DNA of 39,164 nt from an uncultured Saprospiraceae bacterium (GTDB lineage: Bacteria > Bacteroidota > Bacteroidia > Chitinophagales > Saprospiraceae): NCBI GenBank assembly GCA_937967535.1, contig CALCMV010000157.1, positions 1-39,164 on the forward strand, given 5' to 3'. Shown here piece after piece: positions 20,106 to 38,971 of this stretch (position 1 is the stretch's first letter; the number at the start of each line of letters is the position of its first letter). The notes beneath the pieces are model-generated. The model was not told the origin of the DNA, searched no databases, and worked only from the letters and a program-made list of their open reading frames with translations. Both the position numbers and the translations under genes were made by a program.

Positions 20106-20139
20106 GATTTTTGATTTAGTGATTTTTGATTTTAGATTG
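20106..20139 (+). repeat. Tandem word array GATTTTTGATT starting 2 nt after the E2 stop codon
   Basis: GATTTTTGATTTAGTGATTTTTGATTTTAGATTG. The same word follows the stop codons at 22907-22909 and 38969-38971. Its complement CAATCAAAAAT occurs at 20363-20380 and 20660-20670. Confidence 0.75.
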
Positions 20140-20166
20140 CTCTGAAATAGGCATATTTTGAAATTT

Positions 20167-20235
20167 AAAATGTAAAATAACTAATTTAAAATCCCGTCAT
20201 TCGTCGGGACAGGTGTAAAAATGTTTGTAGTACGC
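20167..20235 (+). repeat. Intergenic module, family B, copy 2
   Basis: AAAATGTAAAATAACTAATTTAAAAT (20167-20192) matches 10188-10213 at 24/26. It is followed by a small hairpin insert (CCCGTCATTCGTCGGG), then TGTAAAAATGTTTGTAGTACG. That last block is related to 10214-10234 and, inverted, to 10311-10339. Confidence 0.7.
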
Positions 20236-20659
20236 GAGTGTTTTGTTATTAATTTATAATTAATTAAAAAATAATAAATTAGATAAAAAATGTGTTTGTT
20301 TTATGTGATACAAATTTGAAAATAAAAATGTCAGAACTTTTCCAAACACATATATTTGAGTGCAATCAAAAATCAAAAATCGCTCAATCCCGCAATGTAA
20401 GTTTTATAGCAATTTTAACGTCAAAAATAATGTCCTGTCAAAAAACTACCTTATCTTGGTACGATATTTTAAGGTGAAAAAATAATATTTATAAAAATAT
20501 TTGTATTATTACGCAAATCATAACAGGCTTGACAATCTTTGATTAATTGATTGCAGATATTAGATTGGACTTGAAATAAACATATTTAATTAATTTATTT
20601 TAAATATGTTTTTGTAAAATACTTAATTTAATAAAACGCAAAATTTACTAATTTTAATA

Positions 20660-22989: not shown

Positions 22990-23050
22990 AAAATGAAAAT
23001 AAAAATGGAAAATTAAAATGAAAATAAAAATAAAAATAAAAATAAAAACT
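22990..23050 (+). repeat. Degenerate hexanucleotide microsatellite (AAAATR)n, four perfect AAAATA units at 23021-23044
   Basis: Read directly: AAAATGAAAATAAAAATGGAAAATTAAAATGAAAATAAAAATAAAAATAAAAATAAAAACT. Confidence 0.8.
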
Positions 23051-23055
23051 GCGTT

Positions 23056-23126
23056 TTAAGTGGTTGGACTGAACTAAGCGACACTTTTAATTATGATAAT
23101 TCATTGAAAATGAATTGTTTATTTAA
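23056..23126 (+). repeat. Dispersed ~65-70-bp element, family C, copy 1 (inverted partner at 37420-37487)
   Basis: The 32-nt perfect core TTAAGTGGTTGGACTGAACTAAGCGACACTTT (23056-23087) is the exact reverse complement of 37456-37487. Similarity continues through AATTCATTGAAAATGAATTG and TTTATTT. Confidence 0.88.
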
Positions 23127-29057: not shown

Positions 29058-32000
29058 ATGAAGCAGGTTTATACTTTACTATTACTCCTTTTATTTGCCC
29101 TGACAATTGTTTCAAATGCTCATGCACAATGCGATGCAGTCATTCTCACGCCTGACCAAACGGAAGTTTGTGACAACTTCTTCATGGTCTCCGCACAAGA
29201 ACCGGCAGGCAACTTTACCGGACAATGGACAGGTCCGGGCAATACCTCTTTTGCTGATGAAAACAGCCCAAGTACTTTCATCACCAATCTCAATCCCGGA
29301 CCCAATACCGTCGTTTGGTCTATATTCGATGCAAGTGGAACGATATGCAATAGTATGTCCATTACACTCATCAATAATGAAGTCACGACCACGCCTATCA
29401 TCACCACCGACAATAATCAGGAAGTGTGTGATGAAAACAATTTTCAGATTGCCGCCAATACCAACCTCAATCCCGGCGAAGTCGGTTCATGGTCGTCCAA
29501 TATTCCCGGCGTTACGTTTTTACCGAACGTTAATAACCCAAATGCCACTGCAAACAATCTCGCTCCCGGCAATAATGTCATTTTCTGGACGATAAGAAAA
29601 GAAGGTTGCTCTGCCAATCCTGCCTCTATCACCGTCATCAATAATGAGGTGATTACAGAGCCTGAAATAGAGCCTTTTTCCGTACTTATCAGTTGCGAAA
29701 CCGATGGCTTCGACGATATATTTGCCAATCTCACCAATCAACTCATTCCCGGCGAAACGGGTACTTGGACAGGACCTCCTGGGGTTACTTTCTCGCCCAA
29801 TTCCGAGTCACCGACCATTGACGGTTTATTGCCCGGTGCCAATGAACTCACATGGACCATCTCGCGTGGCGGATGCCCTGTCAAAACGACTTCCGTTACC
29901 CTCGTCAACGATATGGTAATGACTGATGCTCAAATACTTACGAGCGCACAAGAAGTTTGTGATGAAAATGATTTTAGCATAGAAGGAAATACACCCGCCA
30001 ATGGCGAAACAGGTACATGGACAGGACCCGCAGGTGTCACCTTCTCCGACCCGAATAGCCCGACCAGCACCGTCAACGGCTTACAACCCGGTGATAATGA
30101 AATTTGCTGGACGATTTCACGCGGCAATTGTCCGCCTACACAAGCCTGCGTCATCATCACCAATAATGAAGTGACGACCACATCTAGCATCTCTACTGCC
30201 GATGGACAAGAAGTTTGTGATGAAAATGGCTTCATGGTTTCTGCCAATGCACCCGCACCCGGCGAAACGGGAACTTGGAGTGGACCCGCCGGAGTGACTT
30301 TCATGCCCAATGCCAATTCGCCTGATGCGACTGTAAATAATTTGCCATCCGGCACCAGTACTTTATGTTGGACGATAACACGCGGCGGATGTGATGATAC
30401 TGCAACGGAATCATGTATTGATGTAACAAATAATGAAGTCAACACTACCGCAGCCATCTCCACACAAAACGGACAAGAAGTTTGTGATGAAAACGGTTTT
30501 ATGGTTTCTGCAAATACACCTGCGAGTGGTGAAACAGGAACTTGGAGTGGACCCGCCGGAGTGACTTTCATGCCCAATGCTAATTCGCCTGATGCTACGG
30601 TAAATAATTTGCCACCCGGCACCAGCACACTGTGTTGGACGATAACACGCGGTGGCTGCGACGATACAGCAACGGAAGCCTGTATAGAAGTCACCAATAA
30701 TGAAGTAACCAGCGTTTCAGCCATTGGCACTGCCAACGGACAGGAAGTATGTAATGAAGATAATTTTGCTGCCGATGCCAATGTACCCGCAGACGGCGAA
30801 ACCGGAACTTGGTCAGGACCTCCGGGTGTTACTTTCAGCCCCAATGCCAATGCACCAAGCGTTGTGGTCAATGGTTTGCCGACAGGCACGAGTACTTTAT
30901 GTTGGACTATCACACGCGGCGGATGCGATGATACGACGAGCGAATCTTGTATTGATGTAATGAATAATGAAGTTCTCACGCAATCCGCAATCGCCACCAC
31001 TTCCGGGCAGGAAACTTGCGACAGCGATACTTTTATGGTAGAAGGCAATGCCCCGCAAGGCAACGAAACCGGAACGTGGACAGGACCTCCGGGTGTTACT
31101 TTTGACCCGAATGAAAATTCTCCAAACGCTACCGTCATTGGTTTGCCGCTTGGTACAAGTACACTCACATGGACGATTTCAAATGGTGGCTGCCCTGCTA
31201 CTTCTGCCGAAATTTCTGTACTCAATAACGAACCCACCCAACCCGAAATATCTACTTCGGGCGGACAAGCAATTTGCGATATTGAGAGTTTTACATTAGA
31301 AGCGAATACCCCGGCAACAGGCGAAACAGGCGTTTGGACAGGTCCGGCGGGCGTGATTTATTTACCAAATATAAATTCACCAACGGTAACAGTCAGCAAT
31401 TTGCCACCGGGAGATAATGATTTTACTTGGACAATTTCGCAAGGCGGATGCAGCCTTTCGGATGTGGTGACGGTCACAACATTTAGTACGCCCGTAGGCA
31501 CGACCACCATTTCTGATGTTACGGTGGTAGATGGTAATGATGGTGAAATCGCTATTTGCATCAACGGCGGTACTTCTCCCTACGATGTCACTTGGATGCC
31601 GAATGAGGGAGACCTTGCCCCCGTTGCCGGTCCTTGCGATGCCAATTTTGAAATAACGGGCTTGACCGAAAATGTATATACCATATTTATAACAGATGCC
31701 AACGGCTGTAATGACACTATTCCGAATGTAGCTGTCAGCGGACCTATTTGCGACAACTTCAATATCGGACTCGTAACAACAGTTGGCGAAACCTGCAACG
31801 ATACACAAGACGGTAGTATCACGATTGAAGTACTTGGCGCACAAGGCGATATTACTTATTCGATTGGCAACGGTATTCCCGATGTCACAACTTCCGACAA
31901 TCCCTTTACATTCACCGATTTACCCGCAGGTTCTTACAATCTTTTTGTACAAGATGAACGCCTTTGTCCCGATTCGTTTATCAGCAATCCCGTTGTCGTA

Positions 32001-35000
32001 ACCGAACCTAATCCATTGACTGTCAGTACATCTGTAACGGATTTGGGTACGATTGGCGGCTCGGATGGTGCGGTTTGTATTACGGTAGAAGGTGGTACTG
32101 CGCCTTATACGATTACCTCCGATTGTGGTACGGTGATGTCGGGGGCAGGTTCGTGTGGAGGCGATTTTCACATACCCAACCTAATGGATGTTACTTGTGA
32201 AATTACGATTGTGGATGCTACGGGTGAATGTACGGTAATGACCTCTGCAACGGTCAGCCCGCCCACTTGCGACCTTAGCATTAATGGCGACCCGATTGTT
32301 TCTCAAGTCAATTGTTTTAATGGAAATGATGGTAGTATCACAGTAAATGCTTCAAGTATGGGCGGCGGTATTCAATATTCGATTGATGGCGGAGATACTT
32401 TTATGTCAGGTGCGAGTCCTTTTACTTTTGATAATTTACCTGCCGGAACGTATAATTTGGTCTTGGGAGATGCGCTGAATTGTATGACTTCTTTTGCGAA
32501 TAATCCAATCGTACTCAATAATCCCCCCGAACTTATTGTCACCACAGATACGATACGTACCACTACGGTAGGTGGCAATGATGGTATCATTGATATTTGT
32601 ATTATGGGCGGTACGCCCAATTTTACGGTTGAATATACGCCCAATACCGGATTCTTGACTTCGGTACAAGGCAACTGCGATGCCAATTTCCAAATTCTCG
32701 GACTCATCGAAGGGCAATACGACATCACCGTAACCGATGCCAATGGTTGTGTATTCAATATTAGCGAGACAGTGGAAGGACCGGATTGTTCTTCATTTAC
32801 GATAGGACAGGTATTGGCAGAAAATGAATCTTGCAATGAAGCGGACGATGGTAGCATTACGATTGAAGTTTTGAGCGCAATTGGTGAAATTACTTATTCG
32901 GTAGGCAATGGTATTGAAGATGTTGTGACGAATACCAATCCGTTTACCTTTGAAAATTTGCCTGAAGGAGAATATATTGTATTTGTGGTAGATGAAGTGG
33001 GTTGTTCCAATTCATTTATCAGTAATCCGGTCATCATTACCGCACCCGAAGCATTATCCTTGAGTGCAGATTTGACGAATGTTTCTGTTTTAGGTGGTTC
33101 GGATGGTGCAATCGAAATTAGCGTGACAGGTGGTACAGGACCTTTTACAGCAATCATCAACGGTGCTTCGCAAATGACAAGTGCAGACGGTAATTTTGTT
33201 TTTTCAAATTTACCCGCAGGAGAATATGAAATCGTGGTAACGGATGCGAATGGTTGCGAAATTAGCACTACACAAACCCTCAACGACCCTTCATGTGTAT
33301 TGGAGGTAACGGATGTAATGACCACTCCCGCCTCATGTGCAGGCTTCGCGGATGGTACGATTACAATTACTTCAACAAGTGATAATCCGCCCATCGAATA
33401 TACTATTGATGGTGTGAATTTTCAAGCATCCAATGTCTTTACCGGTTTGACTGCCGGCGAATATACTATCGGTATCAGCGATGCGGTCAATTGTACGGCG
33501 ACCTTTAGCGGCAATCCCGTTGTGGTCGGCGAACCTGCGGCTTTGAATATATTGCCTACGATTTTGAATGTCTCAGCATTAGGTGCTAACAACGGACGTG
33601 TGATTTTGTGTATCAATGGCGGTTCACCCGATTATACAGTCAGCATTGACCCGCCTGCGGGAACGATTACGGAGACCATGGGTAGCTGCGATGCCGACTT
33701 TGAAATTACCGATTTGCCACCGGGCGAATATGTCGTTACGATAAGCGATGCGAATGGTTGTGAAGTCATAATTGACGCGCCTATCGAAGAGCCGGATTGT
33801 TCCGGTTTTATGGTCACGGATGTTATTCCGATGGATAATAATTGTAATGTCAGCAGCCAATCCAATCCCGACCCCGATGGTACGATTGAAATTTTTGTGA
33901 CAGGAGGCGAACCACCTTATGATTACTCCATTTTCGGCGGTGCCAATTCGATTAATTTTGCAGATACTTCCTTCCTTTTTACAGGTTTGAATGTCGGAAC
34001 ATACACCATTTTGGTGACGGATGCGAGTAACTGTGCGGTGGGTTTTGTAGAAACCGTCGAAATCGGCGAACCTGAATTATTGGTCGCGCCTCCGACCATC
34101 ATCGAACCGAGTGTAGTCGGTGCCAGCGATGGTGAAATTTGTCTGAGTCCTTCCGGTGGTATTCCGCCTTATACGGTGATGGCGAGTTGTGGTACGGTCA
34201 TCGAGGGTCCGGGGCAGCAATGCGGTGGCGATTTCCATATCGCAGGGCTTTCGGCAGGGCAATGCGACATCCTCGTGATAGATGCAAATCTCTGTGAGGC
34301 GAGTGGTACGATTATCTTGGAAGACCCGCCTTGCGACCAATTTGGTATCTCGGCAGTCAGTTCAGAAAATGCTTGTTTTGGTGTGGCAGATGGCGAAATT
34401 ACGATTAATATTATGGGAGGTATACCGCCTTACCAATATTCTACGGATGGTGGTGCCACTACGCAGACCAGCAATGATATGTCCTTTACATTCAGTGGAT
34501 TGGCTCCCGGAACTTACGATATTTTTGTATCGGATATGGTGCTGTGTACCGAAGATTTTGCCGACCAAATTGTGATAGAGGAAATTGCTGAATTTGAGGT
34601 AGATGCAGGTATGGATGCCACCGTCGAAATCGGGGAATCCATTGAACTCAACGCCACTTCGAGCGAAGCGGGCGACTACGAATGGATGCCCGCAGATGAT
34701 TTGGATGACCCCTTCTCTGCCAATCCTACCGCGACTCCTATGGATGTTGGAGATATTACTTACGAAGTCACCCTCACTACACCCGATGGCTGTACAGCTA
34801 GCGACGAGGTGAGAATTACGGTAGAAGACAATAGTACCGTAGTAGTGCCAACGGGTTTTACACCAAATGGAGATGGTAATAATGATACGTTTTTCCCTGA
34901 AATCAATGGGAATGTGGATGTACTTTCATTTACGGTATGGAATCGCTGGGGCGAAAAAGTCTACGACAATCCTGCACCTCCGGGTTGGGATGGCACTTAT

Positions 35001-35105
35001 AAAAGTGTCAGACAACCCCTTAGCACCTTCGTATATATGCTCGAATTTAGCATCAACAACAGACCACCGGAATTTTTGAAGGGAGATGTGGTGCTGATAA
35101 GATGA
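29058..35105 (+). CDS. Giant (2015 aa) SprB-like repetitive cell-surface protein with a type B T9SS (gliding-associated) C-terminal domain
   Basis: It has a signal peptide. About nine ~89-95-aa Cys-containing modules follow (NNEV...GQEVCDENGF...GETGTWSGPAGVTF...CWTITRGGC). Next comes an array of SprB-type repeats (C-N/G-DGSITV...GG-PY-Y). The C-terminal PTGFTPNGDGNNDTFFP...VWNRWGEKVY is typical of the type B sorting domain. Confidence 0.92.
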   Translation: MKQVYTLLLLLLFALTIVSNAHAQCDAVILTPDQTEVCDNFFMVSAQEPAGNFTGQWTGPGNTSFADENSPSTFITNLNPGPNTVVWSIFDASGTICNSMSITLINNEVTTTPIITTDNNQEVCDENNFQIAANTNLNPGEVGSWSSNIPGVTFLPNVNNPNATANNLAPGNNVIFWTIRKEGCSANPASITVINNEVITEPEIEPFSVLISCETDGFDDIFANLTNQLIPGETGTWTGPPGVTFSPNSESPTIDGLLPGANELTWTISRGGCPVKTTSVTLVNDMVMTDAQILTSAQEVCDENDFSIEGNTPANGETGTWTGPAGVTFSDPNSPTSTVNGLQPGDNEICWTISRGNCPPTQACVIITNNEVTTTSSISTADGQEVCDENGFMVSANAPAPGETGTWSGPAGVTFMPNANSPDATVNNLPSGTSTLCWTITRGGCDDTATESCIDVTNNEVNTTAAISTQNGQEVCDENGFMVSANTPASGETGTWSGPAGVTFMPNANSPDATVNNLPPGTSTLCWTITRGGCDDTATEACIEVTNNEVTSVSAIGTANGQEVCNEDNFAADANVPADGETGTWSGPPGVTFSPNANAPSVVVNGLPTGTSTLCWTITRGGCDDTTSESCIDVMNNEVLTQSAIATTSGQETCDSDTFMVEGNAPQGNETGTWTGPPGVTFDPNENSPNATVIGLPLGTSTLTWTISNGGCPATSAEISVLNNEPTQPEISTSGGQAICDIESFTLEANTPATGETGVWTGPAGVIYLPNINSPTVTVSNLPPGDNDFTWTISQGGCSLSDVVTVTTFSTPVGTTTISDVTVVDGNDGEIAICINGGTSPYDVTWMPNEGDLAPVAGPCDANFEITGLTENVYTIFITDANGCNDTIPNVAVSGPICDNFNIGLVTTVGETCNDTQDGSITIEVLGAQGDITYSIGNGIPDVTTSDNPFTFTDLPAGSYNLFVQDERLCPDSFISNPVVVTEPNPLTVSTSVTDLGTIGGSDGAVCITVEGGTAPYTITSDCGTVMSGAGSCGGDFHIPNLMDVTCEITIVDATGECTVMTSATVSPPTCDLSINGDPIVSQVNCFNGNDGSITVNASSMGGGIQYSIDGGDTFMSGASPFTFDNLPAGTYNLVLGDALNCMTSFANNPIVLNNPPELIVTTDTIRTTTVGGNDGIIDICIMGGTPNFTVEYTPNTGFLTSVQGNCDANFQILGLIEGQYDITVTDANGCVFNISETVEGPDCSSFTIGQVLAENESCNEADDGSITIEVLSAIGEITYSVGNGIEDVVTNTNPFTFENLPEGEYIVFVVDEVGCSNSFISNPVIITAPEALSLSADLTNVSVLGGSDGAIEISVTGGTGPFTAIINGASQMTSADGNFVFSNLPAGEYEIVVTDANGCEISTTQTLNDPSCVLEVTDVMTTPASCAGFADGTITITSTSDNPPIEYTIDGVNFQASNVFTGLTAGEYTIGISDAVNCTATFSGNPVVVGEPAALNILPTILNVSALGANNGRVILCINGGSPDYTVSIDPPAGTITETMGSCDADFEITDLPPGEYVVTISDANGCEVIIDAPIEEPDCSGFMVTDVIPMDNNCNVSSQSNPDPDGTIEIFVTGGEPPYDYSIFGGANSINFADTSFLFTGLNVGTYTILVTDASNCAVGFVETVEIGEPELLVAPPTIIEPSVVGASDGEICLSPSGGIPPYTVMASCGTVIEGPGQQCGGDFHIAGLSAGQCDILVIDANLCEASGTIILEDPPCDQFGISAVSSENACFGVADGEITINIMGGIPPYQYSTDGGATTQTSNDMSFTFSGLAPGTYDIFVSDMVLCTEDFADQIVIEEIAEFEVDAGMDATVEIGESIELNATSSEAGDYEWMPADDLDDPFSANPTATPMDVGDITYEVTLTTPDGCTASDEVRITVEDNSTVVVPTGFTPNGDGNNDTFFPEINGNVDVLSFTVWNRWGEKVYDNPAPPGWDGTYKSVRQPLSTFVYMLEFSINNRPPEFLKGDVVLIR
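30162..30695 (+). repeat. Two tandem 267-bp (89-codon) coding repeats of high identity inside the adhesin gene
   Basis: The units are 30162-30428 and 30429-30695. They share a 44-nt identical run (30270-30313 = 30537-30580) and many shorter ones. Confidence 0.85.
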
Positions 35106-35453: not shown

Positions 35454-36599
35454 TTAAATTTTAACAAATTTCTTTGCAATCCATTCTCCTTCAATCAGGG
35501 TATTGAAAAAATAAACGCCTTGTGAGAAATTAGATACATCAAAGCGATAAGTCGGATTATTGGAGATAGGTCTTGTTTGTGTTTCGAGGATGCGTCCGTT
35601 GACATCCGTAATGATGATTTGTGCATCAGATTGAACCGGAATATTGAGATATTGCACCGTAATAAAATCATTTGCAACCGTAGGCAACAACTGAATATCG
35701 TAGCGACTTTCAGGCTCATTGACATTCGTAACTACTTCACTGACAGTGACATATACGTTTGCCGTAGCACACTGACCATTCGTATCACAGATGCGATACT
35801 CAAATGGCGCAACCTCGCCTACAAAACCACTCGCAGGTTCGAGCAATAATTCGCCGGGATTGTTGCTTGCCGTTACCGTCATTTGCTGTGCAGGCGGCGT
35901 ACTTAGCAGACTAAAAGTACTCATATCCAAATCATCATTAAGGTCAATATCATTATCCAATACATTGACGCTCATAGATTCATTGGGCAATGCGCTGATG
36001 AAATCATCGAAAGCAGTAGGCGCAACCGAGCAAAAATCGTAGAAACAAATATCGAGGTCTGCATAATTACCCTCTTGTACAACGTACAAACCGCCATCAT
36101 ACTTCTCTACCACAACGGTATTCGGATAATGCACCTCAGCATAAGTGTGCCAAGATAGATTCAGGCACTTGGTCGGGTCTGCAATATCAAATTGCAGTCT
36201 GCCTACGCTTGTCCAATCCGAAGCACTGACAAGCATCCCCGCATCACTCTGCAATTCAACATTATACGACAATACTGTGTCGATACTTCCCACTAAAGAA
36301 TGTGAGCTATACAAAACAACCGTACCATCAGGCAATTGGGTAACGCCAGCCAAGTCCAACTCTTCGAGAATAACCGGATTAGCAACGGCATTTCTGGAAA
36401 AAGACATTCGGTAATTTTGTTCCGCTACATTGAAAGTCGAACCATTGTCACTCGCTTTGAGTGTAATGTCTGCACTGACTTTCATGTTTCCGCAATCCAC
36501 CTCATTGAGCAGAAAGTGGAGGTCAAATTGACCTATCTGAGCATTAGCTTGTGAGAGTAACATGCACAAGCAAGCAGTTAAGTACAAATACTTACTCAT
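35454..36599 (-). CDS. T9SS-secreted protein with a cadherin/VCBS-like Ig domain and a type A C-terminal sorting domain
   Basis: 381 aa with signal peptide MSKYLYLTACLCMLLSQANAQ. The Ig-like segment reads APTAFDDFISALPNESMSVNVLDNDIDLNDD...ANVYVTV. The C-terminal LLPTVANDFITVQYLN...GVYFFNTLIEGEWIAKKFVKI is CTD-like. Confidence 0.87.
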   Translation of the reverse strand: MSKYLYLTACLCMLLSQANAQIGQFDLHFLLNEVDCGNMKVSADITLKASDNGSTFNVAEQNYRMSFSRNAVANPVILEELDLAGVTQLPDGTVVLYSSHSLVGSIDTVLSYNVELQSDAGMLVSASDWTSVGRLQFDIADPTKCLNLSWHTYAEVHYPNTVVVEKYDGGLYVVQEGNYADLDICFYDFCSVAPTAFDDFISALPNESMSVNVLDNDIDLNDDLDMSTFSLLSTPPAQQMTVTASNNPGELLLEPASGFVGEVAPFEYRICDTNGQCATANVYVTVSEVVTNVNEPESRYDIQLLPTVANDFITVQYLNIPVQSDAQIIITDVNGRILETQTRPISNNPTYRFDVSNFSQGVYFFNTLIEGEWIAKKFVKI

Positions 36600-37068
36600 T
36601 TGAAAAAATATTTCTTAAATTATTATAAAATATGATTCGTACAGTTTTTGAGGATTTAGCAGATGGTGAGAATAGTGGATTGTTGGGGAATTTTTTTAAG
36701 ACTCTGACATCTGGCAGCAAAGCGGTCTGGCTTCTAAAAGTTTTAATATAAAACTAGCGATAATACTGATTGTTAGAAATTTTATTACGCAAAAATTAGT
36801 GCTTTTTATACAAACTCCAATTTCTTTGCTTTGTGGTCGGTATTCATACCATAAATCATAAAATAGTGACGCGGTAGACCTAAGAGTTGTCGTGTTTTTT
36901 AGTATTATTTTTATGCAAATGCTGTATAATTTTTGGCGTGTTTAATTTTCATACAAAAGAAGCCGTCCAAATGTTGTTTTTATTTTCTTAGTTCAATGTC
37001 TTCGCCAAATTTCAAACTAAAGAAACTATTAGCTTATTTTTCCGTTAATTATTGGTGAAAAATGGTAC

Positions 37069-37419
37069 TATACTGTGAACGGTATAAATTTCGGAAAATA
37101 TCAGTTTTTCCGAATGAACCCGTAATGACTGCTTTAGCTGTCAAGTGCATTATTATTTTTATTTATAAAAAATTTAAAAACAATAATTTATAGATTTATT
37201 TTTATTTCACTTGACAGCTAAACAGGCTGACCGGGAACTCGTACAGGCGATTTCAATCGCCATGTTTAGTATAATTTTTATTTATAATTCACTGTAAATA
37301 AATGTTATACGAATTTTGTTTATTTTTTACATGGCGAATGAATTCGCCTGTACGGTATTCGCGGTCAGCCTGTAAAGCAGTCATTACAGTTTTCCGAAAT
37401 TTATGCCGTTCACAGTATA
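37069..37419. repeat. 351-bp compound inverted repeat (outer stem plus two internal hairpins with AT-rich 60-65-nt loops)
   Basis: Arms were verified by hand. A: 37069-37098 / 37390-37419 (29/30). B: 37122-37136 / 37373-37387 (15/15). C: 37133-37147 / 37208-37222 (15/15). D: 37222-37233 / 37362-37373 (12/12). E: 37240-37264 / 37330-37354 (23/25). Confidence 0.9.
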
Positions 37420-37487
37420 AAATAAATAATCCATTTTCAATGAATTATGAAAATGAAAGTGTCGCTTAGTTCAGTCCAACCACTTAA
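37420..37487 (-). repeat. Dispersed ~65-70-bp element, family C, copy 2
   Basis: It contains the exact reverse complement (37456-37487) of 23056-23087 plus flanking similarity. It directly abuts the compound inverted repeat and ends 80 nt upstream of the adaptor gene. Confidence 0.88.
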
Positions 37488-37567
37488 TATTATTAAAGCA
37501 ATAGCAACTTTCGGAAGAAATCAACAAAGAACAAAGAACGTGATTAGTTACAAATTATTTTTATCAT

Positions 37568-38971
37568 ATGTCAAATAAAATTCTTCGTAAAGCCAGTATC
37601 ATCTTGGGTTTGATTTTGTTGGTGGCTGGCATTGCCATCAGCAATAAAATAGCCAATCGAAAAGCACCTCAAAAACAACAGACCGCCGCCAAACCCGGCA
37701 TCAATTATGTACAAGCCATCACTGCAAAAAACGATGCCATACAATCGCAAGTAGGTATCAACGGCATGTTGACTGCCAAGAAAAAAATCGAAATGTATGC
37801 GGATGTATCAGGCACACTAAAGCCTACACAAAAGGATTTCAGAGAAGGCGTATACTACGATGAAGGCGAAATTATGATGGTGATAGACGACGAAGAAGCC
37901 CGCTTCAATCTTGAAGCCCAAAAGAGCCAACTCAAAGCCTCCGTCACCGCTTTTATTGATGACATCAACGATACCCAACAACGGCTCAATCTGCAAGCAC
38001 AAAAGAGTCGTTTGAAGGGCTTGATTTTGTCGGTTTTATACGACTTGGAAAGCGATTTTTCTGATAATTATTTGACATGGAAAAACTACATAGATGCTTT
38101 TGATTTGAATGGAAATATACGCCCGCTACCCAAAGCCCGTACCGACCGCGAACAGTTTTTTGTAGATGCCAGAGGAATCACTGACCAATACCTGAATATC
38201 AAGAGTTTAGAAGAAAGTTTGACCAAATATGACAATTATAATACGGGTAATTATGGTGTGACGGATATTGGAAAATGGAAAAATTATGTAAATGCTTTTG
38301 ATGTCAAAAAATCCGTTGATGCACTGCCCACACCTACAAGCGGACGCGAACAGTTTTTCTATGCTTCCCGCAATCTCGAAAATCAATATCTGAACATCAA
38401 AAGCCGCGAAAAAAACCTGAGCAAATACGTCATTTTCGCGCCCTTCAACGGAGTGGTCACACAATCGGCTATCAATCCGGGTGCATTGGTGCGTGTGGGG
38501 CAAAAATTAGGCGAATTTATCAGTCCCTACACCTACGAATTGACAGCTACTGTACCGCTTGAAGAAGTCGGATTTTTCAGACCGGGCAATACAGTAAAAC
38601 TCACCTCTGATGCTGTGGCAGGGGAGTGGTCGGGCAAAGTAGCGAGAGTCGGAAAAAGCATTGATGCGACCACACAAACACAAAAAATATTCATTCGCGT
38701 ATCGGGTGCCGACCTCAATGAAGGCATGTTTTTGAATGGCTTCGTAGCCACCGAAAAAATCGAAAATGCCATCAGTATACCTCGCAAATTGCTCAATGAC
38801 AATCGCGAATTATATATTATTGAAAATGATAAATTAGCATTAAAACCTATCCAATTGGTCAAATTTGATGGCAATAATGCCATCGTAAAAGGCATTCCCA
38901 ACGATACAAAAGTACTCGCAGCCCCCATACTCGGTGCTTACGAGGGTATGCCGGTGCAAATGATTGAATGA
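37568..38971 (+). CDS. HlyD-family efflux periplasmic adaptor (membrane fusion protein) with an internally duplicated helical region
   Basis: 467 aa with an N-terminal TM anchor. The lipoyl-like halves are MYADVSGTL... and ...VIFAPFNGVVTQSAINPGALV. A beta-barrel domain sits at the C terminus. The 51-aa segment W171-Y221 is repeated at W237-Y287 (nt 38078-38230 and 38276-38428). Confidence 0.87.
   Translation: MSNKILRKASIILGLILLVAGIAISNKIANRKAPQKQQTAAKPGINYVQAITAKNDAIQSQVGINGMLTAKKKIEMYADVSGTLKPTQKDFREGVYYDEGEIMMVIDDEEARFNLEAQKSQLKASVTAFIDDINDTQQRLNLQAQKSRLKGLILSVLYDLESDFSDNYLTWKNYIDAFDLNGNIRPLPKARTDREQFFVDARGITDQYLNIKSLEESLTKYDNYNTGNYGVTDIGKWKNYVNAFDVKKSVDALPTPTSGREQFFYASRNLENQYLNIKSREKNLSKYVIFAPFNGVVTQSAINPGALVRVGQKLGEFISPYTYELTATVPLEEVGFFRPGNTVKLTSDAVAGEWSGKVARVGKSIDATTQTQKIFIRVSGADLNEGMFLNGFVATEKIENAISIPRKLLNDNRELYIIENDKLALKPIQLVKFDGNNAIVKGIPNDTKVLAAPILGAYEGMPVQMIE

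Follow-up and report, generated by a model that had tools for sequence, protein, structure and literature searches.

What kind of DNA is a branched palindrome of 351 bp, built of near-perfect stems, that lies between two divergent genes of an uncultured Saprospiraceae bacterium? The question is raised by a stretch of 39,164 nucleotides (hereafter the window), in which this compound palindrome occupies positions 37069-37419 of an intergenic gap of 968 bp (36600-37567). An earlier note on this DNA had described its arms, had named nested MITEs, an invertible promoter, a cruciform or single-strand origin and a recognition structure for an HUH/RAYT-type enzyme as candidate explanations, and had added that it could not be matched to any described element. 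From the comparison with other copies reported here, the compound palindrome is a mosaic of selfish DNA and not a dedicated switch, an origin or an RNA gene. Its three layers are probably MITE-like elements inserted into one another, non-autonomous and mobilised in trans, with some features of REPs and BIMEs. In sequence the families are new, and at this level the earlier failure to match the structure to a described element stands, but the kind of element is already known, with parallels to its architecture among REP dimers, BIMEs and MITEs.

The locus and its predicted fold

The gap was confirmed to separate a gene with a T9SS sorting signal from an adaptor gene, and the palindrome lies 149 nt upstream of the adaptor start codon (Table 1). 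All five pairs of arms that had been listed, A to E, were reproduced both by a script and by a repeat finder (A 29/30, B 15/15, C 15/15, D 12/12, E 23/25). B and C, first taken as separate arms, turned out to be one continuous arm of 27 nt (37121-37147), whose partner arm is split by the insertion of another element, D-E. Taken layer by layer, the elements measure 351, 114 and 150 bp. The sequence ATTTTTATTTATAA, already noticed in both big loops, is indeed common to loop 1 and loop 2. The predicted folding energy of a 371-nt stretch is -107 kcal/mol as DNA, against -31.4 +/- 3.8 kcal/mol for shuffled sequences (z = -19.9), and -169.5 kcal/mol as RNA, against -66.5 kcal/mol (z = -20.5); the controls were dinucleotide shuffles, none of which (0/100) equalled the native sequence. 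Both predicted folds consist of an outer stem with two hairpins, in agreement with the shape deduced earlier from the arms.

Table 1. Features of the compound palindrome and its surroundings (positions in the window).
Feature	Position	Strand	Basis or remark
Ig-domain protein gene with T9SS sorting tail	35454-36599	minus	left neighbour of the gap
Arm A, left terminal inverted repeat of the outer "A-type" element (TATACTGTGAACGGTATAAATTTCGGAAAAT)	37069-37099	+	29/30 with 37390-37419
Partial inner copy of the start of arm A' (CAGTTTTTCCGAA) and linker TGAACC	37100-37120	+	read from the sequence
Left arm of X (CGTAATGACTGCTTTAGCTGTCAAGTG; B+C)	37121-37147	+	imperfect mini-palindrome GACTGC-TTTA-GCTGTC within
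Loop 1, AT-rich spacer of X, 60 nt	37148-37207	+	spacer statistics of X copies
Distal half of X right arm (C')	37208-37222	+	15/15 with 37133-37147
Inserted D-E element, 150 bp	37223-37372	+	termini CAGGCTGACCG.../...CGGTCAGCCTG, direct TAAA flanks
E arms of the D-E insert	37240-37264 and 37330-37354	+	23/25; each with its own mini-hairpin
Second TAAA copy (37373-37376) and proximal half of X right arm (B', GCAGTCATTACAG)	37373-37389	+	in-silico excision
Arm A', right terminal inverted repeat of the outer element	37390-37419	+	pairs with arm A
"Family C" repeat, 68 nt, a separate low-copy repeat outside the palindrome	37420-37487	+	inverted copy at 23056-23124, 87-95% identity
HlyD/RND adaptor gene	37568-38971	plus	right neighbour of the gap

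No ORF of 60 aa or more was found inside the palindrome, which is overlapped only by chance ORFs of 43-55 aa. A search of the palindrome in Rfam gave no match at the gathering score and, at permissive E-values, only sub-threshold hairpins of generic microRNA precursors; no tRNA or tmRNA was found in the window. No counterpart of the palindrome turned up by BLAST in plasmid and phage collections or in two scans of viral contigs, and exact-protein look-ups for the two flanking genes returned nothing on record. A check of the loops by eye found no exact match to the Bacteroidota -7 motif TAnnTTTG. Housekeeping genes of the chromosome surround the palindrome, and none of the genes in this context is for replication, a relaxase or a phage function. 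The window also encodes, at 29058-35105, a T9SS cell-surface protein of 2015 aa of the SprB-repeat/CHU_C type, with tandem coding repeats of 267 nt at 29.3-31.4 kb.

By its relatives, the adaptor assigns the contig to Saprospiraceae, phylum Bacteroidota. Six contigs carry orthologues of the adaptor gene (L001-L006, 77-90% protein identity; loci are numbered with the prefix L throughout). Their upstream regions lack the palindrome and have only low-complexity A/T runs in common with the window; since these regions show no homology and the synteny differs, they represent absence of the element rather than a clean empty site. Matching loci with and without the 351-bp element as a whole were not found, the regions upstream of the adaptor orthologues being too diverged for alignment. 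A scan of metagenomes for the left flank followed by the right flank at a distance of 0-8 nt, as expected of an empty site, gave no match, and an all-against-all comparison of near-identical loci for presence or absence returned only unrelated repeat families.

Three nested layers

The outermost layer is bounded by arms A and A'. A 21-nt pattern from arm A, searched in a collection with one genome per species, matched 17 loci. All belong to three MAGs of uncultured Saprospiraceae, one of which has 13 of the loci, and many are at contig ends. Repeats of this type, of about 31-33 bp, bound elements of 147-316 bp with unrelated interiors (L007, L011, L014, L017, L018-L021, L023), the commonest interior being a hairpin of CGCAGAG repeats, besides X and other palindromes. 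L017 contains arm A, a local hairpin and the B+C hairpin, without D-E, and is 93% identical to the window over 154 nt. The local hairpin is formed in the window by the segment 37100-37120 with the inner end of arm A; the same arrangement is found in L017 (93% identity), and the segment would derive from the start of arm A'. Every copy of the A element has TATA on either side, so that a duplication of 2-4 bp is inseparable from the terminal repeat.

Within the outer element lies the hairpin element X, whose arms are the joined B and C. Uninterrupted stems of B+C with C'+B' across a spacer are present in L017, L007, L011, L019 and L008. Stretches of marine metagenome contigs that contain a 21-mer of the X arm, AATGACTGCTTTAGCTGTCAA, number at least 120 and come from several JGI and ENA projects. 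A census of modules over 143 loci (1.18 Mb) counted 57 simple X-X' hairpins, in addition to many X hairpins bounded by D termini. The unique X-X' hairpins number 63 and occur in varied gene contexts (loci L007-L143). In these, the X arm that had not been used in the search is 93% identical to the consensus, a figure that is inflated because pairing with at most four mismatches was demanded; the spacers, with 85% A+T and mostly 45-62 nt long, are pairwise about 61-66% alike, versus 59% for shuffles. The palindrome within the arm, of 16 bp, reads GACTGCTTTAGCTGTC. A target-site duplication is not evident for the X layer.

Nearly all X hairpins (62/63) are intergenic. Only one of 45 falls in a convergent gap, versus 18% of the background gaps, and 58 of the 90 adjacent gene ends are 5' ends, so that most X hairpins face at least one gene start. 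This bias away from convergent gaps could be due to target preference, to selection or to promoter activity in the spacers. In four orthologous loci that have a 555-aa protein in common (L058, L081, L107 and L112), the left arm of X and about 22 nt of spacer are followed by wholly different sequence according to the strain; by this divergence, the AT-rich spacers look like breakpoints of rearrangement or insertion.

The innermost layer is the D-E element, which comprises the two D termini, linkers, the E arms and the 65-nt loop 2, and interrupts the right arm of X. In the window C' ends with the first copy of TAAA (37219-37222), and the filled site reads AGCTAAA(CAGG...CCTG)TAAAGCAGTCA or, in a longer reading, ...GACAGCTAAA(CAGGCTGACCG...CGGTCAGCCTG)TAAAGCAGTCATTAC...; the corresponding empty site, found in L017 and L011, reads AGCTAAAGCAGTCA. 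Deletion in silico of positions 37223-37376, that is of the 150-bp insert and one TAAA, restores an X hairpin of 114 nt, for which 98 places in 86 loci give alignments that cover at least 70% of its length, the best of them at 94% identity over the full length. Relatives of D-E itself occur in L008, L070, L126, L128, L044, L127 and L080 (71-83% identity), with 11 matches covering at least 70% of the element in 7 loci. TAAA or TTTA precedes 36 of the 67 unique D termini, and other D contexts have the direct duplications CAAA (L060 and L096) and TTTT (L094). Because these 4-bp direct flanks vary among the D copies, they are a target-site duplication and not element sequence; such duplications are demonstrated for the D layer alone, not for A or X. 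A half-palindrome of the GAC(N)GC type, belonging to an X-, Y- or E-type arm, abuts 35 of the 67 D termini, which points to insertion at the centre of a palindrome of the GACTGC-TTTA-GCTGTC type in such an arm.

Among the candidates first proposed, nested MITEs are thus the one that gains from the comparison, each layer being multi-copy and the inner one having both a target-site duplication and a matching empty site. The earlier note had also held that many copies with target-site duplications would reduce the structure to an ordinary MITE, and this is what was found for its parts. Its preference for symmetry at the level of DNA over a conserved RNA fold is borne out as well, by the conservation of the arm sequences and by the result of the Rfam search.

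Kinship of the modules and recurrence of the branched shape

Kinship among the modules was judged by reading the sequences, without a statistical test. The X, Y and E arms follow a common plan, consisting of a CGTA head, 2-3 bases, a stem of 5-6 bp, a TTYA loop, the complementary stem and a GTG-type tail. The heads read CGTA(A/C) in all three, and the mini-palindromes are GACTGC-TTTA-GCTGTC in X, GACGAC-TTTA-GCCGTC in Y and GGCGAT-TTCA-ATCGCC in E; the inner stem varies by type yet stays complementary, through paired changes. The termini A (TAtACtGtGAACGG...CGGAAAAC) and D (TAaACaGGCTGACCG...CGAATAC), which both directly abut the CGTA head, look like long and short versions of one outer terminus. 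Hybrid hairpins made of one X arm and one Y arm occur, and the modules come in varied orders.

The same three-way-junction shape recurs elsewhere, in L082, L080, L126 and L008. A D-bounded element with an inner hairpin of type Y lies in the right arm of X in L082 and L114, and the D element lies in the left arm, in either orientation, in L080, L126 and L008. In L011 a D-X-D' unit is found at the centre of the mini-hairpin of an E arm. The three-way architecture has arisen repeatedly and independently. In the mirror-image copy of L008, neither the orientation of the loops nor the loop sequences of the mini-hairpins differ from the window relative to A'; this copy therefore goes back to an insertion of its own, and inversion of the window element was rejected as its source.

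Search for a mobilising enzyme and proposed mechanism

The families and their copy numbers, the empty and the filled site and the 4-bp duplications are direct observations on the copies. An autonomous partner, that is a transposase gene with the same terminal repeats, was not found within 2 kb of about 200 copies. The ORFs beside solo A arms encode housekeeping proteins and no transposase, and clustering of 637 ORFs for a recurring neighbour protein gave only syntenic orthologues. No recurrent transposase appeared among the 25 most frequent of 147 Pfam families in 125 neighbouring ORFs. Searches with E. coli RayT by phmmer and tblastn in the 1.18 Mb around the 143 loci found no homologue, and a motif screen of the neighbouring sequence for Y1-type transposases gave no match. 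In the 39-kb window itself, Pfam identified neither a recombinase nor a transposase.

The elements would be non-autonomous and mobilised in trans by a transposase encoded elsewhere in the genome, trans action being probable because no copy carries a gene. The mobilising enzyme is probably of the DDE type, because staggered cuts give 4-bp duplications. In the history that we propose, an outer element with terminal inverted repeats of about 31 bp (A/A') carried the hairpin element X inside; later, D-E entered the right arm of X at the central TTTA/TAAA of its small internal palindrome, duplicating four bases. As each layer is itself an inverted repeat, such nesting gives an outer stem and two hairpins, that is a three-way junction. 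The enzyme probably binds the conserved arms and prefers a target of the form GNC-TWWA-GNC, which the arms of sister elements supply, and this would lead to repeated self-nesting. The structure at this locus is probably a by-product of transposition; if it influences the divergent promoters or the 5' leader of the adaptor gene at all, this would be a secondary consequence.

Relation to known systems and alternative explanations

MITEs are known from bacteria, nested ones included, an example being the Correia elements of Neisseria. The elements described here resemble MITEs in being small (100-350 bp) and non-coding, with terminal inverted repeats (A/A' 29/30, D/D' 12/12, X arms of 27 nt) that form the same termini in other copies, in having multiple, dispersed intergenic copies and short A/T-rich target duplications, the latter, with empty and filled sites, for the D-E layer, in having no transposase of their own and in folding into long hairpins. 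They differ from MITEs in that no parent insertion sequence was found beside the copies searched, that each arm encloses a mini-palindrome and is far more conserved than the interior, and that the D-bounded subfamily prefers the mini-palindromes of sister elements, giving branched palindromes. Insertion into a palindrome is also known from IS1397 and ISKpn1, insertion sequences of the IS3 family that carry a transposase and insert into palindromic units. There, as here, a mobile element targets the central loop of the palindrome of another repeat; the inserting element in our case is a non-coding palindrome of 150 bp and not a full insertion sequence.

The serious rival is a REPIN/BIME-like origin, in which X, Y and E would be REP-type units, set in inverted doublets and mosaics within a carrier palindrome and copied as single-stranded hairpins by a single-copy, RAYT-like HUH tyrosine transposase encoded elsewhere; we consider it rather improbable. 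REP doublets, or REPINs, and BIMEs have been described in detail (Bertels and Rainey, 2011, PMC3116915; Di Nocera et al., 2013, PMC3733652), and include tail-to-tail REP dimers with variable spacers of 20-100 bp as well as hybrid dimers (PMC3733652). The X, Y and E units likewise form inverted pairs of imperfect palindromes of about 27 nt, each with a 5-6-bp stem, a 4-nt loop and the common CGTA head, and with paired changes that keep the stem. Conserved arms (93%) around variable spacers are more like REP doublets than like classical MITEs, the X/Y hybrids are hetero-doublets, and the order of the modules varies as in BIMEs, which are mosaics of several unit types. Even the A/A' arrangement has a counterpart in the Anabaena REP dimers that lie inside long palindromes of the form TATAGGA...TGAAA--TTTCA...TCCTATA (PMC3733652). 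Against this stand the head, which is CGTA and not the GTAG or CGTC that defines the described REP superfamilies, and the gene context, since X hairpins shun convergent gene ends and mostly face gene starts, the opposite of typical REPs with their preference for gene 3' ends (PMC3733652). The spacers are also of 45-62 nt with 85% A+T, and the D-bounded units have variable 4-bp direct duplications, which HUH transposition does not yield. The earlier proposal of a recognition structure for an HUH/RAYT enzyme gained no support, as these duplications are present and no RAYT homologue was found in the 1.18 Mb around the copies. A broader idea, possible but unlikely in our judgement, is that of an undescribed superfamily of palindromic mobile DNA in marine Saprospiraceae, in which extruded hairpins or cruciforms would be recognised by the enzyme and new copies would be placed at the apical TTTA of the mini-hairpins in sister arms, so that branched DNA with three-way junctions is built on purpose; behind it would stand either a structure-specific DDE enzyme or, with a new CGTA head, a counterpart in Bacteroidota of the REPIN-RAYT partnership. 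If this were true, the bias towards gene starts might reflect a role at promoters at the level of the host.

The functional readings fare far worse. An inverton, with A/A' as recombinase sites and a flip of 37099-37389 switching the adaptor/efflux operon or the T9SS cargo gene, is very improbable. The invertons of Bacteroidota do match the segment bounded by A/A' in size and geometry, having a 20-30-bp inverted repeat around 200-300 bp upstream of a surface or transport operon, and here 291 bp lie between the two copies of a 30-bp inverted repeat, in a region of divergent promoters that precedes an efflux adaptor gene. The repeat, however, is the dispersed end of a transposon family with unrelated interiors and many gene contexts, the window lacks a recombinase by Pfam, and there is no sign of inversion, the mirror arrangement of L008 keeping both loops in their orientation relative to A'; the invertible promoter proposed earlier thus gained no support. 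Consensus sigma-70-like promoters show no excess either (3 versus 6.9 expected), in a scan that does not cover Bacteroidota promoters. Equally hard to credit is a structured ncRNA, or a leader that regulates the adaptor gene in cis, whose function would lie in the branched fold. The very stable RNA fold and the position just upstream of the adaptor gene would suit it, but the near-perfect stems are conserved by sequence and not by covariation, no Rfam family reaches its gathering score and the only weak matches are generic long-hairpin microRNA precursors, the copies lie at unrelated genes and in both orientations along contigs, and the absence of the element from the orthologous adaptor loci already largely refutes it. 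Least credible of all are an artefact of assembly and the reading as a cruciform or as a single-strand origin of replication or transfer (sso/oriT-like). The length and branching of the palindrome and its AT-rich loops invite such readings, but the chromosomal housekeeping context, the lack of matches among plasmids, phages and viral contigs and the multi-copy chromosomal distribution speak against an origin, for which no evidence was obtained, and an artefact of assembly is excluded by the recurrence of the parts in independent assemblies from several projects.

Other repeats in the window and in related contigs

The family C repeat that adjoins the right end of the palindrome, and its inverted partner at 23056-23124, both already pointed out, are real. 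Further copies are found in L010 (6804-6870, 91%) and L007 (1344-1413, 81%); the conserved core reads AGTGTCGCTTAGTTCAGTCCAACCACTTAA, and homology among the copies stops exactly at the boundary of A'. One of the two copies in the window lies upstream of the adaptor gene, the other between convergent genes and next to an A-rich tandem repeat of 12-13 nt (AAAATGAAAATAAAAAT...) at 22990-23048. At the end of the contig (39052-39159) a repeat containing ...CTTGAAAACAGTTATTTATCCAGATAAACGCC... is 84% identical to L126 220-327, with similar sequence also inside insertions of L044 and L129; this repeat probably broke the assembly there. A perfect palindrome of 20+20 bp (CGATTTGTAGAGAAAATTCA|TGAATTTTCTCTACAAATCG), located at 979-1018 after an aconitase-family gene, has a near-identical core, GTAGAGAAAATTCATGAATTTTCTCTAC, in L057, and may be another repeat family or a shared terminator. 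Two inverted repeats of 51 nt, 78% complementary and 175 nt apart, follow the gene of a 2-oxoacid dehydrogenase E2 (20113-20389).

In L010 (219-335), just upstream of an ADP-ribosylglycohydrolase gene, a solo A' arm with CGCAGAG-type repeats on its outer side is surrounded by a direct duplication of about 30 bp (GTGTCAACTACT...CTAAACATGCCTAA), far longer than the 4-bp duplications seen elsewhere. A clean pair of filled and empty sites for an unrelated MITE of 204 bp is provided by L044 (9841-10046) and L126 (3325-3334); its termini are GCCAACTAAGAGTT.../...AACTCTTAGTTGGC and its duplication is of about 10 bp (CATTATACAT). This pair shows that several MITE families are, or recently were, active in these genomes.

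Significance

A striking structure is explained as ordinary selfish DNA, which averts its annotation as a riboswitch, an inverton or an origin. At the same time, previously unnamed and abundant palindromic families are documented in uncultured marine Saprospiraceae, namely arm A, the X/Y/E hairpins, the D termini and the CGCAGAG-repeat hairpins. These families break metagenome assemblies, as seen at contig ends, nest preferentially in each other and lie mostly upstream of genes. The repeated, site-specific nesting at the centres of the arm palindromes of sister elements is a point of moderate interest, since it constitutes a natural data set on target choice that, given a closed genome, could help to identify the transposase.
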